Shown: piece by piece, positions 6,130 through 59,083 of the stretch
How the letters are laid out: every line of letters starts with the position of its first letter
Position numbering within the stretch: the first letter of the stretch is position 1
NCBI GenBank assembly: GCA_963841895.1
Contig: CAWJEO010000014.1
Span: 38,303-102,302, forward strand
DNA: 64,000 bases
Reading direction: 5' to 3'
DNA from: an uncultured Acidobacteriota bacterium
GTDB lineage: Bacteria > Acidobacteriota > Vicinamibacteria > Vicinamibacterales > UBA2999
Made by a program: the position numbers and the translations under genes
Notes under the pieces: generated by a model
Seen by the model: the letters and a program-made list of their open reading frames with translations, nothing else
What the model was told of the DNA's origin: nothing
Database searches by the model: none

Positions 6130-7038
6130 ATGGCCGAGCTGAGCTGCGTGCTACATTCGCCGTATGCTCGCGGGCCGACAGTTCAGCCGGCAGTCAGACT
6201 CGTCGTGGCGGCCCTTTGCACAGCTTTTTCCAGCTGCGCCGGCCAGGCGCCGCGCCAGTACGAATTGCGTGGCCAGATCCTCGCGCTTCGCCCGGAAGCC
6301 AACGAAGTCCTCATCAAGCACGGCGACATCCAGAACTTCATGCCGGGCATGACGATGCCGTTCAAGGTCCGGGACGCCAGGCTGCTCGACGGCAAAGCCG
6401 GCGGCGACCTCGTCACCGCGCAGTTGATGGTCGGTGAGAACGAGGCCTGGCTCTCGGCGATCGAGAAGACCGGCTCGGCGCCGCTCGAGACGGTCGCCAC
6501 GATTCCCCCGGCGTCCTTCGTGACGCCGCTCGCACCCGGCGATCCCGCCCCCGACACCGAGCTCGCCAACCAGGACGGCAAGCCGGTCTCGCTCAAGGCG
6601 CTGAGGCCGCGGGCCGTCGCGATCACCTTTATCTATGTCCGCTGCCCGATGCCCGAGTTCTGCCCGCTGATGGATCGGCGCTTCGCCGACGTCCAGCGCC
6701 AGGTCGCGGCCGATGCGTCGCTCGGCGAGAGGGTCCACCTGCTGTCGGTCAGCTTCGATCCCGATCAGGACACGCCGGCCGCGCTGAAAGCGCACGCCGG
6801 CAAGCTCGTCGCCGACCCTGCGCGGTGGACGTTTGCGACGGCACCGCGCGAGACCATCGACCGCTTCGCGGCGGCGTTTGGGGTCAACGTCATCCGCGAG
6901 GCCGACCGTACCATCACCCACAACCTGCGCACGGCCGTCATCGGCCCGGACGGCAAGGTCGTCGCGATCTACAACGGCAGCGACTGGACCGCGGATCAGA
7001 TGGTCGGCGACCTGAAGCGCGCGCTCCAGGCCTCATGA
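6130..7038 (+). CDS. SCO1/SenC-family thioredoxin-fold copper chaperone with N-terminal Met-rich (MPGMTMPF) copper-binding domain; lipoprotein-like signal
   Basis: VRCPMPEFCP Cys motif in thioredoxin fold, ...SVSFDPDQDTP..., Met-rich N-domain; signal LVVAALCTAFSSC. Confidence 0.7.
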   Translation: MAELSCVLHSPYARGPTVQPAVRLVVAALCTAFSSCAGQAPRQYELRGQILALRPEANEVLIKHGDIQNFMPGMTMPFKVRDARLLDGKAGGDLVTAQLMVGENEAWLSAIEKTGSAPLETVATIPPASFVTPLAPGDPAPDTELANQDGKPVSLKALRPRAVAITFIYVRCPMPEFCPLMDRRFADVQRQVAADASLGERVHLLSVSFDPDQDTPAALKAHAGKLVADPARWTFATAPRETIDRFAAAFGVNVIREADRTITHNLRTAVIGPDGKVVAIYNGSDWTADQMVGDLKRALQAS

Positions 7039-24171: not shown

Positions 24172-25470
24172 GTGGGGCGGCCATCCATCATGTCGAACGA
24201 CCACGCTCGGCCGGTCCCGCCGCCCGTCTCGAGTGTCTTCACCCAGATCGGCCCCGGGTTGCTCGTGGCCGCTGCCGGGATTGGCGCCGGCGACATCGTG
24301 TCAGCGACGATGGCAGCAGCGAATCATGGCCTCGCGCTGTTGTGGGTCGTCGCGCTCGCGGCGTTTCTCAAAGGCGTGCTCAACGAGGGCATCGTGCGGT
24401 GGCAGCTCGGGACCAGGACCACCGCCATCGAGGGCTGGTGCCTGCACCTTCCGTCGTGGGTGCGGTGGTACTTCGCGTTGTATCTCGTGCTGTGGACCGT
24501 GTCGGTGAGCGCGGCGCTGACCAGCGCGTGCGGGCTCGGGCTCGCCACGATCACCGGCGGTCTCGTGCCGCGACCGTGGGGCGCCGTCGCCCACGGCCTG
24601 CTCGGCGGCACGCTCGTCGCAATCGGCGGCTTCGCGGGCTTCGAGCGGATTATGAAAGTGCTGATCGGCACGATGTTCTTTGCGATTCTCGCCTGTGCCG
24701 CGTTGACGTTGCCGGCGCCGGCGGATGCCGCACGCGGGTTGCTGGTCCCGGCGATCCCGGGCGGCGGGGTCACATCGTTTCTGTCAGTGCTCGGCGGCAT
24801 TGGCGGCTCAATCGCGATGCTCGCCTACAACTACTGGTTGCGCGAAGAGCGGAAGGTCGGGCCCGAATGGCTCACGTTCGTCCGCGGCGATATCGTGGTG
24901 GCGTACGTGTTCACCGCGATCTTCGGCATGGCGATCATGATCGTGGCGACGCAGGCCTTCCATGTCCCGGGCATCGCCATCAGCAACGCGCAAGCGGTGA
25001 CGCGCATGGCCGAGACGCTCGGCGCGACGATTGGGCCGGTGGGCTTCTACGCGTATGCCGTCGGATTCTGGGCCGCGGTCTTCGCCTCACTGCTGGGCGT
25101 CTGGCAGAGCCTGCCGTATCTCTTTGCGGATTACTACGGATTGCTGCGCGGTCTCCCGCATGACGTTCGCGCACGGCTGACCAGCGTGACGAGCCGTCCC
25201 TATCGGCTCGCGCTCCTGTTCATCACCCTCGTGCCGATTCCGTTCGCCTTCGTCGACCAGCCGCTGTTCATGATCCGCGCCTTCACGATCGTGGGCAGCC
25301 TGTTCATCCCGTTCCTCGCCGCGACGCTGCTCTATCTGAACAATGCCGTCCTTCCCGTGGAGAGCGGCGTGCCGCGCAACTCGTGGGCGACGAACCTGGT
25401 GCTCGTGCTGGCGATGCTGGTCTTTGCGGCCGTGGGCGCCTCAGAGGCGGGACTGCTGCGGTTCTCGTGA
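24172..25470 (+). CDS. mntH: Nramp-family divalent metal (Mn2+/Fe2+) transporter
   Basis: GPGLLVAAAGIGAGDIVSATMAAANHG Nramp signature; roughly 11 TM helices; intact 432-aa ORF. Confidence 0.85.
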   Translation: MGRPSIMSNDHARPVPPPVSSVFTQIGPGLLVAAAGIGAGDIVSATMAAANHGLALLWVVALAAFLKGVLNEGIVRWQLGTRTTAIEGWCLHLPSWVRWYFALYLVLWTVSVSAALTSACGLGLATITGGLVPRPWGAVAHGLLGGTLVAIGGFAGFERIMKVLIGTMFFAILACAALTLPAPADAARGLLVPAIPGGGVTSFLSVLGGIGGSIAMLAYNYWLREERKVGPEWLTFVRGDIVVAYVFTAIFGMAIMIVATQAFHVPGIAISNAQAVTRMAETLGATIGPVGFYAYAVGFWAAVFASLLGVWQSLPYLFADYYGLLRGLPHDVRARLTSVTSRPYRLALLFITLVPIPFAFVDQPLFMIRAFTIVGSLFIPFLAATLLYLNNAVLPVESGVPRNSWATNLVLVLAMLVFAAVGASEAGLLRFS

Positions 25471-25493
25471 CGCGTGCCAGCCCGGCGAGTTTT

Positions 25494-25594
25494 GGGGATA
25501 GGGGTGGGGGGCAAGGGTCAGGTCGTGAATCGTGAACGGAGGCCGGCGCTCCGTTCACGATTCACGACCTGACCCTTACCCCTCCCCCCTATCG
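25494..25594. terminator. roughly 100-nt near-perfect palindrome between convergent mntH and amidinotransferase-like gene (bidirectional terminator / repeat element)
   Basis: GGGGATAGGGGTGGGGGGCAAGGGTCAGGTCGTGAATCGTGAACGGAG / CTCCGTTCACGATTCACGACCTGACCCTTACCCCTCCCCCCTATC; shares exact 21-mer CAGGTCGTGAATCGTGAACGG with 33590-33610. Confidence 0.65.
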
Positions 25595-26360
25595 CGGCAA
25601 GCCCAGCCGCTCGAGCGGGCGCGTCAGGCAGGTCGGACCGCCTCCGCCCTTGACGCTGATCTCCGACCCGTCGTAGGTCAGACCTCGGCGCCCGCCGCTT
25701 CGAGCCGCGCGCGGGTGACCGGGTTCCCTTCGAGCATCAGCGCACGGCGCGGAGCCGACCGCCAGGACGTTCGCGCCCATCGACTCGAACTCTTCGTCTG
25801 GCACTTCGACGAGCGCGATTCCCCGCTCGAGCAGCCAGCAGCGGAACGGCACCGGCATCAGCGGCGAATACACCACCGCCAGGTCGCGATCGATCGGGCT
25901 CAGGATCGACATCAGGTGAAAGACGTCGGACGGGCCGCGGTAGTGCGGCAGCGCCGACGACTTCGACGTGCACGTCGTCGCCCGAGCGCATCGCCGGAGC
26001 TGAGCGATCCCCGCGTCATTGGTTCGATAGCCACGGCCGACCGCGACCGTGCGCTCGTCGAACCAGACGACGATCGCCGCCTTCGAGCTGGCCGGGCGCT
26101 TCGATCGCGCCGAGCACCGGGACGCCCACGCGTCGAACGCCCGCTGCTGCGCCGCGGGCTCGGTCTGCCGCGAGCCGGCTTGCCCATCCGCGCCAGGACG
26201 ACGCCGCGCGGCGTCACGATCGACGCGTCGCGCACGTAGATGGCGTCGAGGGTCACGTCGGGAGCGGCGGGACACTCGTCGATCCGCGCGCCCGCAGCGG
26301 CGAGCAGCGCCGCGAACGCGTCGTACTCGGTCGACGGCGCGCCCGCGATCGGGCGGCGCG
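25589..26360 (-). CDS. amidinotransferase-superfamily protein (arginine deiminase / DDAH-like); frame-disrupted
   Basis: C-terminal block HLMSILSPIDRDLAVV..LLERGIALVEVPDEEFESMGANVLAV..EISVKGGGGPTCLTRPL (GGGGxxCxT active-site Cys region). Confidence 0.5.
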
Positions 26361-26367
26361 GTGAAGT

Positions 26368-27799
26368 TCAGCGCGCTGCCACTCGCGTGCGATCCGTTCG
26401 TCGCTGCCGAACGCGGCGCGCGCGTGCAGGAGCGATCACGCGCGACAACGGGCCGTATTCGTTCGTGCAGGTCATTCGCCGCCTCGCGCGCCGCATCCAG
26501 ACATAGACCGGCAGCCCGCCAAGCAGCAGCAGGAAGCCATAGAAGACGGTCTCCGCGCCGGCGCCGTAGATCGCGAACATCGCGTAGACGAATGCCAGCA
26601 CGCTGACGACCGCCGCCGCTCCACCGGGCGCGGCTGCTGTGGCATCAGCCAGACCGCGAGCGCAGCAGAACACGTACGGCACCAGCGTGCTCAGCGTGCA
26701 CAGCAGGATGATGAACGTGAAGAGCGCGACCAGGCCGCGCGAGTAGTTCATCGCCACCAGCACCGAGCGCCAGCACGCCGGCGATGATCATCCCGCGCGC
26801 CGGCGTGCCACGACGCGAGAGCTGGCGCGAAGACGCGCGGAAAGAGTCCGTCGGACGCCGCGGCCATCGGCAGTTGCCCGGCGATCAGGACCCACCCGTT
26901 GAGCGCGCCCGCACACGACACGGCCGCGCCAAGGGCGACGAGCTGCGCCGCACGCGTCGCCGATCAGCTGGCGCGCGCCGTCGGCAAACGGCGCCGTCGA
27001 CGAGGCCAGCGCGTCAGGCGCGACGAGGCTCATGACGCCGATCGTCGAGACGATGTAGATGGCCGCGGTCAGCGTCGTGCCGACGATCGTCGCCAGCGGA
27101 ATCGTCCGCGTCGGGATTGCGCACGCTCCCGGCCGGAATCGTCGCGCACTCGAGGCCGAGAAACGCCCATAGCGTCAGCGTGACGACCGTCACGATCTGC
27201 GCCGCCGCCGGGGTCTGGTCCGTCGGCGGCATGGCAAACGCGTCGGGCCGGAAGAAGAACACGCCGCCGATCGCCGACGACGACGAGCGGGATGCAGCTT
27301 GAGTGCGGTCGTCACGATCTGGACGCGTCCGGCGAGCCCGACGCCGGCGACGTTGATGCCGACGAAGATCCAGATGACGACGATCGCCAGCGCCGCCGCG
27401 GAACCCGGCGCGCGCACGATCCCGGGAATGAACGGATCGAGGTAGCCCACCAACGCCACCGCCAGCGCGCCCAGCGTGCCGACCGTCGACAGCCAGTAGC
27501 CCCACGCGACGAGGAAGCCGGCGAGATCGCCAAAGGCCGCGCGCGTGTAGGCGTACATCCCGCCGGTCGCCGGCAGTTGCCGCGCCAGCCGCGCGAACAC
27601 GAGCGCCAGCATCACCGAGCCGCCGGCCGAGACACCAGCCAGCCCACCAGGCTCAGCCCTCGATAGGCCGCCAGCGACGCCGGCAGCAGAAACACGCCGG
27701 AGCCGATCATGTTGCCCATGACGATCGGCGACGGCGGCCCAGAAGCCGAGCACGCGAGGCGGTGGGGCGTTGGCGGGCTGGCGAACGCGACTCGTCCAT
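26368..27799 (-). CDS. APC-superfamily amino-acid permease; at least three frame breaks
   Basis: IVMGNMIGSGVFLLPASLAAY, LPATGGMYAYTRAAFG, WGYWLS N-terminal signatures; hydrophobic C-terminus 26368-26763. Confidence 0.65.
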
Positions 27800-30171: not shown

Positions 30172-30180
30172 ACGCGCGTA

Positions 30181-30280
30181 TCTGGTGATGCTGATGATCT
30201 GGCGATCTGGTGATCTGACCCGCTGATCCGATCGCTCAGTTCACGAGATCACCAGATCAGCAGATCAGCGATCTCTGCGA
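30181..30280. repeat. palindromic tandem-word element (GGTGATCTG family): TCTGGTGATGCTGATGATCTGGCGATCTGGTGATCTG ... GAGATCACCAGATCAGCAGATCAGCGATC
   Basis: read directly between convergent kinase (stop 30171) and zinc-ribbon gene (stop 30281). Confidence 0.7.
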
Positions 30281-30583
30281 TCAGTCGAGATCAAAGCCGC
30301 GCAGCGGCTTCGTGACCGGTTCCTTCTTCGCTTCTCGAAGCGCTTCCTCGAACCGCTTCGACAACGCGTCGCCGCGCGTCTTCTCGTCCTGGACCGACTG
30401 CTCGAAGAGCGCTTCGCGCCGCGCCGCCTGCTCGGCGAGGATGCGCTGCGCTTCGGACAGCTCCGGCCGATTCGGGTTGGGCGGCTCGCGATGCTCGATC
30501 ACGCGGCCGAGGTTGGTGTCGACGACCAGTACCGCCTGACAGCACGGGCACGTCAGTTCGAGTTCGCTCTTCAACCGTGCCAT
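30281..30583 (-). CDS. small zinc-ribbon-like protein (CPCC...), hypothetical
   Basis: [22 protein letters not shown] then charged helical tail; roughly 100 aa. Confidence 0.5.
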
Positions 30584-32566: not shown

Positions 32567-32890
32567 CCGCGTCTCCGGCGCCCGTACGTGACGAAGGCCG
32601 GCGCTGAGCCGGCCTTCTGGTCTTGCTGATCCTGAGTTCCTGATCTAGCCTTCTTCTTCGAACTCGCCGTCGATCATCGGCCCGAGCCGCGTCGACGGAC
32701 GAAGCGCTTCGCGGTAGTCGTAGAGCGGCAGATCGTGACGTGCAGCGGATTGATGCATCCGGGCGCGTGCTGTCGACGACGACGGTGACAGGGCTGCCGT
32801 GCGTGGTGCCCTCACGAAACGCGAGACGGCAACCGCAGGCGAGACGCGCGTGTTCGAAAGCCTTTCAGCATGGGCTGAAAGGATCATACT

Positions 32891-33530
32891 ACAGCAGCGC
32901 CTTGATCTCCCTTTCGAAGACGGCCTTTGGCGCGATGCCCAGGTGCTTCTTGCAGACCTTGCCGTCGCGGCTGATGATGAACGACGCCGGGATGCCCCAG
33001 ATCGGTCCATACGCGTCCTGCACATCTTCGCGCCCTTCGCCGAGCAGAATCGGATAGTTCATCTTGTACTCGGTCGGCGAACGCCTCGCGCCTTCGGCGC
33101 TTCGTCATCGACCGAGTAGCCGACGACGACGAGGTCGTTCTTGTACTTGCTCTGCAGTTCGACGAAGCCCGGAATCTCCGCCTTGCACGGACCGCACCAC
33201 GTCGCCCAGAAATTGAGCAGGATGACCTTGCCCTTGTACGACGTCAGCGACACGTCCTTGCCGTCGAGATCCTTGATGGTGAAGTCGAGCTTCGCGGGCT
33301 TCGCGTTGGCCATGCACGCGCCGCTCGCTGTTCCTGCTCGCTCGTCGAGCACGCCGGCGCCGCGTCGGGCGCATGCGACGCGACCGGCGCCATCATCCCG
33401 ACCGAGCCGGCTCGGCTTCGAGATCGTGCTGCCACACGAACGGCACGCTGATCGCGAGCAGCGCGATGAAGGTGGCGATCATGGCCGCCAGGCGCAGTTT
33501 CGTGCTTGGCTGGTCCATAGGGGTATTGTG
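32891..33530 (-). CDS. TlpA/ResA-family membrane-anchored thiol:disulfide oxidoreductase; at least three frame breaks
   Basis: N-terminal anchor MDQPSTKLRLAAMIATFIALLAISV; WATWCGPC active site; C-terminal YKMNYPILLGEG..GIPASFIISRDGKVCKKHLG in other frame. Confidence 0.7.
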
Positions 33531-33588
33531 CCTCATCCTCGTTCCCGTAGGGAGAGCTACGGCGGGGACGGCCGCGGTAGGTCGGTGT

Positions 33589-33635
33589 ACAGGTCGTGAA
33601 TCGTGAACGGCGGTCCGTCGCGATCACGACCTGAC
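33589..33635. repeat. hairpin AGGTCGTGAATCGTGAACGG...TCACGACCT sharing a 21-mer with the 25494-25594 palindrome
   Basis: read directly; located between anti-sigma gene 3' end and tlpA start. Confidence 0.55.
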
Positions 33636-34430
33636 CATCACGGCGCCATCCGTACGCGTCGGCGCGCCGATGCCGTCGCCCGCTCGAAATAGGCGGCGAT
33701 GCGTATCGAGCTCGGCAGCCGAGAACGCCGCGGGCGACGAGCGCATAGGCATTGCCGTCGGCGGACCAGATGCGCTCGACGTGACCGAGCACGCGCAGCT
33801 GCTCGGCGCGGACGCGCTTCGCCGGGCGTCACGTAGAGCGACATGTCGTGGCCGCCGCTGCGATACGCAGGTGCGCGTGATCGCCGAGCCAGAACGGGCA
33901 GCGCCGCGCGCCGACCAGCGTGAGATCCGATGTCGGCGCTGGAGTCGGGCACCGGCACCCTCCAGCCGTAGCGTTCGCGCGATACTCCTGCTGACATCGC
34001 CGCGGCGTCGGCGCCGTCGAGCGTGCCCAACGCGAGCACGAAACAGCGCACGTGATCGATCGCGAGCTGCGCCGCGAACAGGACGTCGAGCGCGGCGACA
34101 CGAACTCGAGCGCGGTGACGAGCGCGACCAGGAGCACCGCCGCGGCGCCGAAGCGGTGAGGCGGCCGCCCCACCCGAGCGACGGTACCGGCGTCGGCGCG
34201 GAGGCGGCGCCGCGATGCGGGTCGCGCAGTCCGGGCGGCGCCGGCGTCCGGTCAGCTCGCGCCGCCCGCGCGCGCAGGACCGTTCGCAGCCGTCCGCTGC
34301 GCCTGCGACCGGCGCGCGCAGGCGTCGCACGATGGCGAGGTGGGCCTCGACCTGGGCGGCGGCGCTCGGCGAGCGCCTCGCCGTCCACGTACGGTGGCAG
34401 CAGCGACTCGATCTGGCGACACTCGGTCAT
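33624..34430 (-). CDS. anti-sigma factor (zinc-finger type), frame-disrupted, 3' end uncertain
   Basis: N-terminal MTECRQIESLLPPYVDGEA anti-sigma zinc-finger motif directly after ECF sigma gene; remainder is GC-biased/garbled. Confidence 0.45.
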   Translation of the reverse strand: MTECRQIESLLPPYVDGEALAERRRPGRGPPRHRATPARAGRRRSGRLRTVLRARAARADRTPAPPGLRDPHRGAASAPTPVPSLGWGGRLTASAPRRCSWSRSSPRSSSCRRARRPVRGAARDRSRALFRARVGHARRRRRRGDVSRSIARTLRLEGAGARLQRRHRISRWSARGAARSGSAITRTCVSQRRPRHVALRDARRSASAPSSCACSVTSSASGPPTAMPMRSSPAAFSAAELDTHRRLFRAGDGIGAPTRTDGAVMVRS

Positions 34431-44395: not shown

Positions 44396-44401
<6 letters not shown>

Positions 44402-44493
44402 TCTGGCGATGTCGTGATCTGGCGATCTGATGATCTAAAGCCCTGATCCGATCTCCTGGCTCCTCAGATCACCAGATCACCACATCACCACAT
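44396..44493. repeat. palindromic tandem-word element (GGTGATCTG family): GATCTGGCGATGTCGTGATCTGGCGATCTGATGATC ... CAGATCACCAGATCACCACATCACCACATC
   Basis: read directly between convergent kinase and DUF4097 gene. Confidence 0.7.
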
Positions 44494-44503
44494 CGCAAGA
44501 TTC

Positions 44504-55843: not shown

Positions 55844-55940
55844 TCAGTTACAAGTTGCAAGTTCACAAGTTCAAAGTTAGAGTTCGGCGGACAGCGTTCG
55901 ACCGCTCCAACTTTGAACTTGGAACTTGGAACTTGTAACT
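55844..55940. repeat. roughly 36-bp-stem hairpin built from CAAGTTC words (GTCAGTTACAAGTTGCAAGTTCACAAGTTCAAAGTT ... AACTTTGAACTTGGAACTTGGAACTTGTAACTGTC) between boxC stop and boxB RBS
   Basis: read directly; boxB SD AAGGA lies just downstream. Confidence 0.65.
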
Positions 55941-55942
55941 GT

Positions 55943-57609
55943 CTAGGTTCTTTTCCAGTCGAACGTCGGCCTTCCCTCACGGCCGTAGACCGTGAGCGCG
56001 CCGCGCTCGCCGACGGCGTTGGGACGCTGGAAGATCCAGTTCTGCCACGCGGTGAGGCGGCCGAAGATCTTCGTCTCCATCGTCTCGGGGCCGGCGAAGC
56101 GGAGGTTGGCTTCCATTCCGGTCAACGCGTCGGGCGAGAATGCCGTGCGCTCTTCGATGGCGAGGCGGACTTCGTCCTCCCAGTCGATGTCGTCCGGCGC
56201 GAACGACACGAGGCCGGCGGCGAGCGCTTCCTCCGCGTCGAACGGCCCGTCGTGCGCGAGGACCTCGTCGACGTGACCTGGCTCTCCGAGGAAGCGCGTC
56301 TGCAGCCGGGTGAGGCCGGTGCTCATCGGGTACGACCCGCCGTTCATCACCGACAACTGGATCGTATTCGCTTCGTCCGGGTGCGCGAGCATGTACGAGC
56401 GATCCGCGGCGAGCGCGAGCTCGAACAGCGTCCCGGCGAAGGCGTTGCCGGGCTCGATCAGCGCGAAGAGGCTGCGGGCGGTGAGGTCGAGCCGCTTCAG
56501 CGTCCGCCGGATGTGGCCGATGATCTCGCGCACCAGCCAGTGATCGCGATGCGCGTCGAGCGTTCGATCGACATCGAGGACGGCCTGCGGATCGCCGGTT
56601 GCGCGCAGCAGAATCGTGCCGATCTCGGGCTCGTTCAGCCGCAACCGGAGGAGCGCATCGTCGAACTCGCGAAACGCCCGCAGGGCCCACGACTGATCGC
56701 CGGCCTGCTGGAACGCGTCCGGCGAGTCGGGCTGCGGACTGTCGGGGGCGCTGATCGTGAGCTCGCAGACCCGCTTCGCGCGATCGATCGAGCCGCGCAC
56801 GTATCGATACTGAATGGTGTCGCCGTCAATGGCCGGATTGAGCGGTGCCAGCGAAATCCCGGGACCGGTTGCGGGCCGATCGGATTCGGCCGCCATCGCA
56901 GTGCGCGCGTTCGGTCACGGCGCTCCTGAAACTGACGGCTCGGCACGACTTTGTCGACAAGCCGCCATTCGACGGCTCGCTTGCCCCGCACGCCTTCAGT
57001 CAGCGTGCTGAACGCATCGGCGAGATCGCGGCGCACCTTGCGCTTGTCGACGACGCGCGTGAGACCGCCGGTTCCCGGCAGCACGCCGAGGAGCGGCGTT
57101 TCCGGCAGTGCCACCGAGGCATTGCCATCGTCCACCAGGTAGATCTCATCGCAGGCGAGCGCGAGCTCGTAGCCACCGCCGGCGCAGATGCCGTTGAGCG
57201 CGGCCAGGAACTTGACGCCGCTCGATCGGCTCATGTCTTCCATCCCGATCCGCGTCTCGTTGGTGAACTTGCAGAAGTTCACCTTGAAGCCGTGGCTGGA
57301 CGAGCCGAGCATGAAGATGTTGGCGCCGGCGCAGAAGATGCGCGGCTTCAAGCTGGTGACGACGACGGCGTGGACCTCGGGATGCTCGAAGCGCAGCCGC
57401 TGCAGCGCGTCGGCAAGCTCGATGTCGACGCCGAGATCGTACGAGTTGAGCTTCAGCTTGTAGTCGGCGGGACGGAGGCCGGCATCCTCCTTGACGTCCA
57501 TGGCCAGCGTCGCCACCGCGCCGTCCACCGAGAGTTTCCAGTGCTTGTAGCGATCCGGCGAGGTTTCGAAGGACAACGAGGGCGCGGGCGTCTGGAGAGT
57601 GTGCTCCAC
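55943..57609 (-). CDS. boxC: benzoyl-CoA-dihydrodiol lyase (2,3-epoxybenzoyl-CoA dihydrolase); one frame break near 56890-56920
   Basis: N-terminal crotonase-like domain (VTSLKPRIFCAGANIFML; LNGICAGGGYELALACD) in 56635-57609 frame; C-terminal BoxC domain in 55943-56896 frame. Confidence 0.8.
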
Positions 57610-57666: not shown

Positions 57667-58278
57667 GTGGCAAAACCCGCAAACGGCGCCGATCGCCGCA
57701 TCGAGATTCTCAAGAGCGCTGCCGCCGCGTTCCGCCGCCGCGGCTATCACGGCGCGAGCGTCGACGAGATCGCCTCGGCGCTCGAGATGACGAAGGGGAA
57801 TCTCTATTACTACTTCGAGAACAAGGAAGAGATCCTCTACGCCTGCCACGATTACTCGCTCGACGTGCTGCTGGCGCTGATGGCGGAAGTGCAATCCGAA
57901 CCCTCGACGCCGCCGGACGAGAAGCTGCGCAAGCTGATTCTTGCGTTCATCCACACGATGCTGGACGAACTGCAGGGCACCGCGCTGACGCTCGACCTGC
58001 AGGCGCTGTCGCCGGCGCTCCTCAAGCGGATCATCGCCAAGCGCGATCGCTTCGACCGCGGCCTGCGCGAGATCATCCAGCAGGGCATCGATCAACAGCT
58101 GTTCCGCGCCGGCGACCCCAAGATGATTGGCTTTGCGATGATGGGCGCGGTCAACTGGATCACGAAGTGGTTCGATCCCGCTGGACCGATGTCGTCAGAA
58201 CAGATTGGCCAGCGGTTCGCCGATTACCTCGTCGGAGGACTGTTGAAGAGTTCTGCAGAACTAAGAACGAAGAACTAA
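57667..58278 (+). CDS. TetR/AcrR-family transcriptional regulator
   Basis: HTH GYHGASVDEIASALEMTKGNLYYYFENKEEIL; 203 aa intact; divergent from boxC. Confidence 0.85.
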   Translation: MAKPANGADRRIEILKSAAAAFRRRGYHGASVDEIASALEMTKGNLYYYFENKEEILYACHDYSLDVLLALMAEVQSEPSTPPDEKLRKLILAFIHTMLDELQGTALTLDLQALSPALLKRIIAKRDRFDRGLREIIQQGIDQQLFRAGDPKMIGFAMMGAVNWITKWFDPAGPMSSEQIGQRFADYLVGGLLKSSAELRTKN

Positions 58279-58298
58279 GGTCTTAGTTCTTGTTCGTC
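58256..58298. terminator. hairpin GAACTAAGAACGAAGAACTAAG-G-TCTTAGTTCTTGTTCG (same word family as 333-396), bidirectional between tetR and MBL hydrolase
   Basis: read directly; encodes the last codons of TetR (..AELRTKN-stop). Confidence 0.6.
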
Positions 58299-59026: not shown

Positions 59027-59083
59027 AATCTGGTGATCGTGGCTGAGTCTGGTGATCTGGTGATCTGGTGATCGAGTGACGTC
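59027..59083. repeat. GGTGATCTG-family tandem-word array (AATCTGGTGATCGTGGCTGAGTCTGGTGATCTGGTGATCTGGTGATCGAG)
   Basis: read directly; left boundary of a 530-nt apparently non-coding region. Confidence 0.6.

Follow-up and report, generated by a model that had tools for sequence, protein, structure and literature searches.

The palindrome of approximately 100 nt that lies between mntH and a convergent amidinotransferase-like gene in a 64,000-nt stretch of DNA from an uncultured Acidobacteriota bacterium (hereafter the window) is, with good confidence, a head-to-head doublet of the 24-nt word GGGGTCAGGYCRTGAATCGTGAAT, the flanking repeat of RayT/TIRYT Y1 genes (subclass 2.1 TnpA_REP), and as such a REPIN-like, non-autonomous element. 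The doublet reads as a "TIRtron" reduced to its two ends, the gene being absent. The word belongs to a dispersed, extragenic, orientation-biased, and sharp-edged family that is associated with a transposase gene, and its presence at this very site is polymorphic among relatives. A preliminary description of the locus had proposed a mobile or protein-bound repeat element, a view supported by about 60 dispersed sites, by the bracketing of transposase genes, and by an empty/singlet/doublet polymorphism; the 21-mer that it had singled out as a recurring element is a real repeat. The repeating unit is the 24-nt word and not the 100-nt palindrome.

Architecture of the palindrome and its flanking genes

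An inverted-repeat search returned two arms of 45 nt each (25497 to 25541 and 25549 to 25593), which are 93% complementary and separated by 7 nt, in line with the earlier account of a near-perfect palindrome of about 100 nt between convergent genes. The inner 29 bp contain no mismatch, and all three mismatches fall in the outer part formed by a G-run and a C-run. Folding of the palindrome as RNA yielded −103.5 kcal/mol (z = −10.8; 0 of 200 shuffles equal), and folding as DNA yielded −53 kcal/mol (z = −11.0; no shuffle equal). The core of each arm is one copy of the sharp-edged 24-nt word, and the heptamer TCGTGAA occurs twice in each arm. The 21-mer CAGGTCGTGAATCGTGAACGG, previously noted to be shared exactly with positions 33590 to 33610, indeed has three exact sites in the window, at 25519 (plus strand), 25551 (minus strand), and 33590 (plus strand), with none expected from shuffled sequences. 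The parts of the two word sites and their neighbors are as follows.

24190 to 25470, plus strand: mntH (Pfam Nramp; 426-aa product), the convergent upstream gene, with its stop 26 nt before the left arm
25476 to 25538, plus strand: 63-nt segment (the 18 nt GCCAGCCCGGCGAGTTTT plus the left arm), missing in the related contigs L087 to L090; BLAST and global alignments break at 25475/25539
25494 to 25513, plus strand: outer G-run extension of the left arm, GGGGATAGGGGTGGGGGGCA, recognized in the sequence and pairing with 25577 to 25594 with three mismatches
25497 to 25541, plus strand: left arm, 45 nt, from the inverted-repeat search; pairs with 25549 to 25593 in the RNA and DNA folds
25514 to 25537, plus strand: 24-nt word copy AGGGTCAGGTCGTGAATCGTGAAC, GGGG end outward, fitting the family consensus GGGGTCAGGYCRTGAATCGTGAAT
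25538 to 25552, no strand: 15-nt spacer GGAGGCCGGCGCTCC between the word copies, with the unpaired loop at 25542 to 25548
25549 to 25593, plus strand: right arm, 45 nt, from the inverted-repeat search; the sole arm at the orthologous site of L087 to L090
25553 to 25576, minus strand: inverted 24-nt word copy, orthologous to the single copy of L087 to L090
25577 to 25594, plus strand: outer C-run extension of the right arm, holding the stop of the DDAH-like gene (CTA, i.e., TAG on the minus strand, 25589 to 25591)
25589 to 26475, minus strand: DDAH/amidinotransferase-like gene, frameshifted in this assembly, whose C terminus GGGGPTCLTRPLERLGLPR and stop end inside the outer palindrome
33587 to 33610, plus strand: second-site word copy without the GGGGT start, GTACAGGTCGTGAATCGTGAACGG, from the sequence and the 21-mer search
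33620 to 33636, minus strand: truncated inverted word copy GGTCAGGTCGTGATCGC with one heptamer missing, overlapping the stop of the minus-strand ORF 33624 to 34430

The intact orthologue of the DDAH-like gene in L087 encodes 292 aa and matches PF19420 (DDAH_eukar) and PF02274 (ADI). In the window, the TAG stop codon of this gene (25591 to 25589), together with part of the preceding codon, lies in the outermost 5 bp of the right arm, and the palindrome would thereby supply the present stop codon. The previously claimed overlap with the last codons of the gene holds for the stop and part of the codon before it, but the 24-nt word lies outside the ORF. Frameshifts break both the DDAH-like gene (25589 to 26475) and a tlpA-like gene (AhpC/TSA, redoxin) at approximately 32645 to 33538, and alignment of the window with L087 required 30 gaps in 1.7 kb. 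The two broken genes are probably the result of long-read consensus error rather than pseudogenes. Since the assembly of the window is rich in indels, the lengths of the G-runs in the outer arms are not trustworthy.

On inspection, the outer left arm (25494 to 25513) shows heptad-spaced GGGG repeats resembling a G-quadruplex-type motif. The stretch from 25494 to 25517, GGGGATAGGGGTGGGGGGCAAGGG, has four G tracts with short loops, and such a motif would compete with the hairpin; the same stretch can equally be viewed as degenerate versions of the word's GGGG start at heptad spacing. No T/U tract follows the stem on either strand, and a terminator scan made no call there, which agrees with the earlier judgment that this is not an ordinary terminator; lacking a U tract, the palindrome is not a canonical intrinsic terminator. 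Rfam at gathering thresholds gave no match in the whole window. BLAST searches of plasmids and phages with the palindrome and a pattern scan of IMG/VR likewise returned no match, so nothing points to an origin from a plasmid or phage. The scans of the window, of reference genomes, and of metagenomes revealed no further copy of the doublet as it stands at this site.

The window contains two sites of the word. At the second, located at 33587 to 33636, the hairpin previously reported at 33589 to 33635 is present but much weaker, with a perfect stem of only 10 bp and a fold z score of −3.8.

A dispersed family of extragenic words

The exact 21-mer was found in the reference-genome collection in one other Acidobacteriota MAG, whose intergenic regions each contain several copies of a somewhat longer word, and in a lone Sphingobium match, which we take to be due to chance. 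As an exact string the 21-mer is thus rare, and it is too strict a pattern for counting the word family. Metagenomes were scanned with the query GGTCAGGTCRTGAATCGTGAA, and copies with up to three mismatches were counted. The scan produced 70 stretches with 174 copies of the word. In the sequence logo of these 174 copies, the positions from GGGG to GAAT were near-invariant and the flanks carried no information; two leading G's, located outside the search pattern, were 96 to 98% conserved. The copies form about 60 distinct extragenic sites and occur as singlets, tandem arrays, and doublets in contigs of 34% to 73% GC. Perfect or near-perfect copies with AT-rich flanks are present in contigs of 34 to 52% GC (L005:419-442, L014:4256-4279, and L030:6219-6242, and also L038, L052, and L057), and the family is therefore not confined to high-GC Acidobacteriota. 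A literature search for the 24-nt word found it in none of the papers covered.

Neighboring copies show a pronounced orientation bias: in the metagenome stretches, 47 doublets were of the +− type, with the GGGG ends outward, versus 2 of the −+ type. The other arrangements comprised 21 ++ and 7 −− tandem neighbors as well as 21 isolated copies. Spacers range from −2 to 73 nt, and tandem arrays have a period of 26 or approximately 42 nt. The word has no internal complementarity; instead, it contains a direct heptamer repeat, with one to three GTGAATC heptamers per word, and it has no GTAG/CGTC end. In many other doublets the palindrome also extends 2 to 6 nt past the word, and those positions are unconserved in the family. 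Resemblances to parS, LexA boxes, Fur boxes, and attC sites were dropped, the word being nonpalindromic, located at 3′ ends, and multi-copy.

The position relative to genes was evaluated for 44 distinct clusters on high-GC contigs, for which crude gene calls based on ORF length and GC3 could be made. Only 7% of these clusters were inside a predicted ORF, versus 73% of random positions, and 75% faced the 3′ end of a gene within 150 nt, versus 21% at random. One doublet subfamily of 81 nt has an arm asymmetry (GTT versus CGT) and a 33-nt spacer that are constant at at least nine sites with unrelated flanks, from which it follows that at least this doublet spreads as a unit. Its sites are found in L013, L017, L028/L047, L036, L053, L056, L066, L071, and L073, and within the 33-nt spacer lies a further small, terminator-like hairpin, GTCCTC-N4-GAGGAC with TTTT behind it. 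At the flanks of doublets, neither a target-site duplication nor a target motif recurred consistently.

Association with Y1/HUH transposase genes

In six independent contigs (L034, L041, L042, L084, L085, and L086) the word brackets a Y1/HUH transposase gene, in all six with + copies upstream and − copies downstream, i.e., with the GGGG ends outward. In L034, two copies are located directly upstream of an ORF of 282 aa, and one inverted copy lies 9 nt past its stop. This ORF (6176 to 7024) matches Pfam Y1_Tnp above the cutoff (E = 5.6e-12) and reaches 74.7 bits with the NCBIfam model REP_Tyr_transpos, just under the cutoff of 80. Its homologues in L041 and L042 are 39 to 43% identical to the L034 protein and are bracketed likewise by word clusters. 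In the L034, L041, and L042 proteins, the HUH motif (NHYH) and the Tyr motif are invariant, and the C-terminal 60 to 70 residues correspond to a helix-turn-helix (HTH); HTH_23 and HTH_28 exceed the cutoff for the L042 protein and score lower for the remaining two. A database search with a threshold of E ≤ 1e-20 gave 1236 homologues, many of which carry the JGI annotation "REP element-mobilizing transposase RayT." Three homologues on long contigs (L084, L085, and L086) are 93%, 64%, and 66% identical to the L041 protein; a doublet precedes the start of each gene by 140 to 220 nt, one to three inverted copies closely follow its stop, and L084 contains five word sites in 21 kb. The six bracketed transposases are 39 to 93% identical to one another, and because these proteins have diverged to as little as 39% identity, it is unlikely that the six associations represent one recently transferred locus.

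The start of the word, GGGGTCAG, fits the consensus published for the flanking repeats of this branch, GGGGWSAS or GGGG[AT][CG]A[CG] (PMC3733652, PMC6006769), and the window's own copies read AGGGTCAG and GGGTCAG. No Y1 transposase gene was detected in the 64-kb window by tblastn or by profile searches of six-frame fragments. This speaks against the preferred interpretation, in that the cognate enzyme in this genome is putative; in addition, since the word, unlike classical REPs, is neither palindromic nor tagged with GTAG/CGTC, the biochemistry of RAYT-REP systems may not transfer to it. The presence of just two sites in 64 kb and the lack of a consistent target-site duplication or target motif count against this interpretation as well.

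Empty, singlet, and doublet states of the locus in relatives

The MntH homologues of the window are from Vicinamibacterales, and their contigs revealed three states of the orthologous site. In L082, whose MntH is 89% identical, the site is empty: the stop codons of mntH and of the DDAH-like gene overlap (TCATGA) without any spacer, and the DDAH-like protein ends in PLERVAS, versus PLERLGLPR in the window. The singlet state is represented by four Illumina contigs from four samples (L087 to L090), which fall into the 90%-identity MntH cluster of the window and whose flanks are 95 to 96% (left) and 90 to 92% (right) identical to it. Their spacer of 49 nt contains the window's loop sequence, one inverted word copy, a shorter C-run, and the same TAG stop; the sequence GAGGCCGGCGCTC from the window's inter-word spacer also adjoins the singlet. 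The C-run extension is 8 nt shorter than in the right outer arm of the window with the stop identical, and the singlet differs from the right arm of the window at three positions. The doublet state, found in the window, has 63 extra nt (25476 to 25538), which comprise 18 unrelated bases and the left arm. More distant MntH homologues (approximately 80% identity) have another downstream neighbor, and their orthologous site is uninformative.

Given that the outgroup L082 is empty, the word was acquired by an ancestor shared by the window and L087 to L090. As to the step between singlet and doublet, these taxa would fit either a gain of the left arm by the window or its loss by L087 to L090. The palindrome runs into the flank carrying the DDAH stop, which is already present in the singlets; the insertion of a second, unrelated copy is therefore less likely than inverted copying of the resident arm or homogenization of the arms.

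Further features of this region were recorded. An imperfect direct repeat, GCCAGCCCGGC/GCAAGCCCAGC (9 of 11 positions identical), at 25478 to 25488 and 25597 to 25607 flanks the window's excess over the empty site of L082; it is absent from L082, and only its right copy is present in L087 to L090. The contig of a relative with 85% identical MntH (L074:3982-3995) ends 14 nt past the mntH stop in TCAGGAACCAGGAA, which resembles the beginning of a further element made of heptamer repeats, and a contig with 98% identity (P0001) ends 54 nt past the stop. Short-read assemblies appear to break at such elements.

Proposed mechanism and alternative explanations

In the proposed mechanism, a cognate transposase encoded elsewhere in the genome would bind the word and would spread and cluster it. 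Binding could proceed via the HTH domain on duplex DNA or via the HUH domain on a hairpin extruded in single-stranded DNA; we infer the action of the enzyme on the word from the literature on IS200/IS605 and RAYT. At the mntH locus, the right arm already in place, together with a few bases next to it, would then have been copied in inverted form to give the left arm, or the relatives would have lost the left arm. REP elements in E. coli form RNA hairpins that protect the 3′ ends of upstream mRNAs. By analogy, the hairpin of about −100 kcal/mol might act as a 3′-end barrier or stabilizer for both convergent transcripts, stopping 3′ exonucleases or polymerase.

The most serious competitor of this transposase-based interpretation, although the less probable one, is that template switching or fold-back synthesis turned a resident singlet into the doublet on the spot, or hairpin-stimulated deletion reduced the doublet to the singlet, with no transposase involved at that step and the original arrival of the word as the sole mobility event. 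Such an origin is suggested by the relatives, which share the window's inner flank and stop codon but have the right arm only, and by the extension of the palindrome past the word into the flank (GATAG/CTATC and the G/C runs), an extension of 2 to 6 nt into unconserved positions being common in other doublets as well. Moreover, the inner 29 bp pair without a mismatch, even though three positions distinguish the right arm of the window from the singlet of the relatives. Because the palindrome extends 18 nt past the word and includes the host stop codon, a local inverted duplication fits better than insertion of a ready-made doublet. What an origin in place leaves unexplained is the 18-nt sequence GCCAGCCCGGCGAGTTTT in the extra segment, which is not an inverted copy of anything nearby, and one doublet subfamily has clearly spread as units. 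A different concern is whether the left arm exists at all, since it could be an inverted duplication introduced by the long-read assembler into an error-rich contig. The many indels that separate the window from the Illumina contigs of its close relatives (30 gaps in 1.7 kb), the frameshifts in several genes, and the presence of the right arm alone in four Illumina contigs would agree with such an artifact, which we nevertheless regard as quite improbable: in short-read contigs the family takes exactly this doublet form more often than any other (47 cases), 18 of the 63 additional nt are nonpalindromic, the arms differ in their outer parts, and an inverted insertion of 63 nt is not typical of consensus error. 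Furthermore, the right arm itself differs from that of the relatives by 8 nt, and these are about 5% diverged and not the same strain.

The exact position of the palindrome between convergent genes, its very stable RNA hairpin, the enrichment of the family beside gene 3′ ends, and the small hairpin followed by TTTT inside one subfamily would all suit a primarily host-selected bidirectional terminator or mRNA 3′ stabilizer that evolved at this site, the similarity among sites reflecting a common structural solution. This is unlikely, as there is no U tract on either strand, the terminator scan was silent, and one relative (L082) manages with overlapping stops and without a hairpin; structure alone does not explain a word that is conserved to the base in contigs of 34 to 73% GC and that brackets transposase genes. 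Termination or stabilization may be a secondary role of the palindrome. An operator array for a host DNA-binding regulator could be imagined from the direct and inverted heptad layout (TCGTGAA twice per arm), which is reminiscent of a Fur/MntR box and lies close to a metal transporter gene; yet the palindrome is at the 3′ end and not at a promoter, the word adjoins unrelated genes at about 60 sites and also occurs in arrays, and orthologous mntH loci are devoid of it, so that we give this idea hardly any weight. An equally faint prospect is a MITE of a DDE transposon with GGGG-starting terminal inverted repeats of the Tn3 type, unrelated to Y1 transposases. Ends of the Tn3 family start with GGGG, and the outward GGGG ends and the TIR-spacer-TIR layout would correspond to this. 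However, the only gene repeatedly found between inverted word copies is the Y1/HUH gene (six contigs), there is no consistent target-site duplication, tandem arrays with periods of 26 and approximately 42 nt are not MITE-like, and the word, at 24 nt, has no Tn3-type inner motif.

Other hairpin-forming repeats in the window

Besides the 24-nt word, the window contains further hairpin-forming repeats. A second family, with arms made of tandem octamers GATCTGG[CT], is found at 30180 to 30290, 44400 to 44494, and 59030 to 59075; two full copies share the loop CTGATCCGATC, and the third site is a one-armed run. The family lacks a GGGGWSAS start, and no partner gene is known for it. A third family, with heptamers GAACGAA/GAACTAA in inverted arms, is located beside gene 3′ ends at 337 to 395 and 58255 to 58295 and also occurs in a related metagenomic contig (L062:3917-3956). 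In addition, a hairpin of about 100 nt with arms of CAAGTTNN octamer repeats lies between two minus-strand genes at 55846 to 55945 and occurs once in the window. The lineage seems to be rich in extragenic hairpins built of short tandem words of lower GC content than the genome.

DISCUSSION

The assignment proposed here explains an odd 100-nt palindrome as an element of a known but little-studied kind and links a defined 24-nt DNA word with a branch of RayT proteins that is poorly characterized (TIRYT/subclass 2.1); the word is a ready-made oligonucleotide for testing subclass 2.1 enzymes. The three states at one orthologous site provide direct comparative evidence that such repeats come and go and reshape gene ends. 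Hairpins of this type appear to break short-read assemblies and may serve as transcript 3′ barriers in Acidobacteriota. A more far-reaching and doubtful hypothesis would be that subclass 2.1 RayT/TIRYT systems maintain active REPIN-like populations in soil Acidobacteriota (Vicinamibacterales), with a 24-nt word near-constant across hosts of 34% to 73% GC while the proteins are approximately 40% identical, and with doublets made in place by arm copying, thereby rewriting gene 3′ ends (here with a new stop codon and a C-terminal tail). If true, the locus would offer a natural empty-singlet-doublet series for an element class without demonstrated mobility.

Comparison with known systems

Like MITEs such as the Correia elements of Neisseria, the word doublets are short and noncoding, have terminal inverted repeats, lie beside genes, and are able to alter gene ends; MITEs, however, need DDE transposases and make target-site duplications, neither of which was seen for the word. 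The resemblance to E. coli REP/BIME elements consists in the extragenic location, often at 3′ ends and between convergent genes, and in clusters of alternating or tandem orientation. In contrast, the sequence is different, REP units are self-complementary, and binding of IHF, gyrase, and Pol I is a feature of REP elements.

Closer parallels exist with REPIN/RAYT systems (Bertels & Rainey 2011, PMC3116915; PMC5581495), in which two inverted units with a short spacer form one hairpin of approximately 60 to 100 nt. As in these systems, the word is extragenic and flanks a RayT-type gene, singlets occur beside doublets, and one doublet subfamily (81 nt) is copied as a unit, although the window's own doublet was found just once. 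On the other hand, the word lacks both the palindromic form of a REP unit and its GTAG tag, its partner protein has an HTH domain in addition, and REPINs are high-copy, whereas here two sites were found in 64 kb and five in 21 kb of L084.

The "TIRtrons" described by Di Nocera et al. (2013, PMC3733652) consist of a RayT-like gene (TIRYT) with inverted repeats, and not REP hairpins, on its two sides. GGGGWSAS is common to many of these repeats, which are also found singly, as dimers, and in groups; an Acidobacteria-specific group of TIRYT proteins was reported. Quentin et al. (2018, PMC6006769) equated TIRYT with subclass 2.1 TnpA_REP, whose defining feature is a C-terminal HTH (Bac_DnaA_C, HTH_23, or HTH_28), and gave the flank consensus as GGGG[AT][CG]A[CG]. 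Experimental transposition of a TIRYT-type element is reported in neither PMC3733652 nor PMC6006769, and the same applies to the substrate, activity, or mobility of the TIRYT/subclass 2.1 branch. The system described here differs from TIRtrons in that this 24-nt word is conserved in contigs from 34% to 73% GC, that tandem arrays and variation in heptamer copy number are prominent, that an empty/singlet/doublet series at one locus is documented, and that the window itself contains no TIRYT gene. It shares with them, at word sites outside the window, a Y1/HUH gene of approximately 280 to 290 aa with a C-terminal HTH that is bracketed by inverted repeats, as well as a word that starts with GGGG[AT][CG]A[CG] and is scattered as extragenic singles, dimers, and groups.
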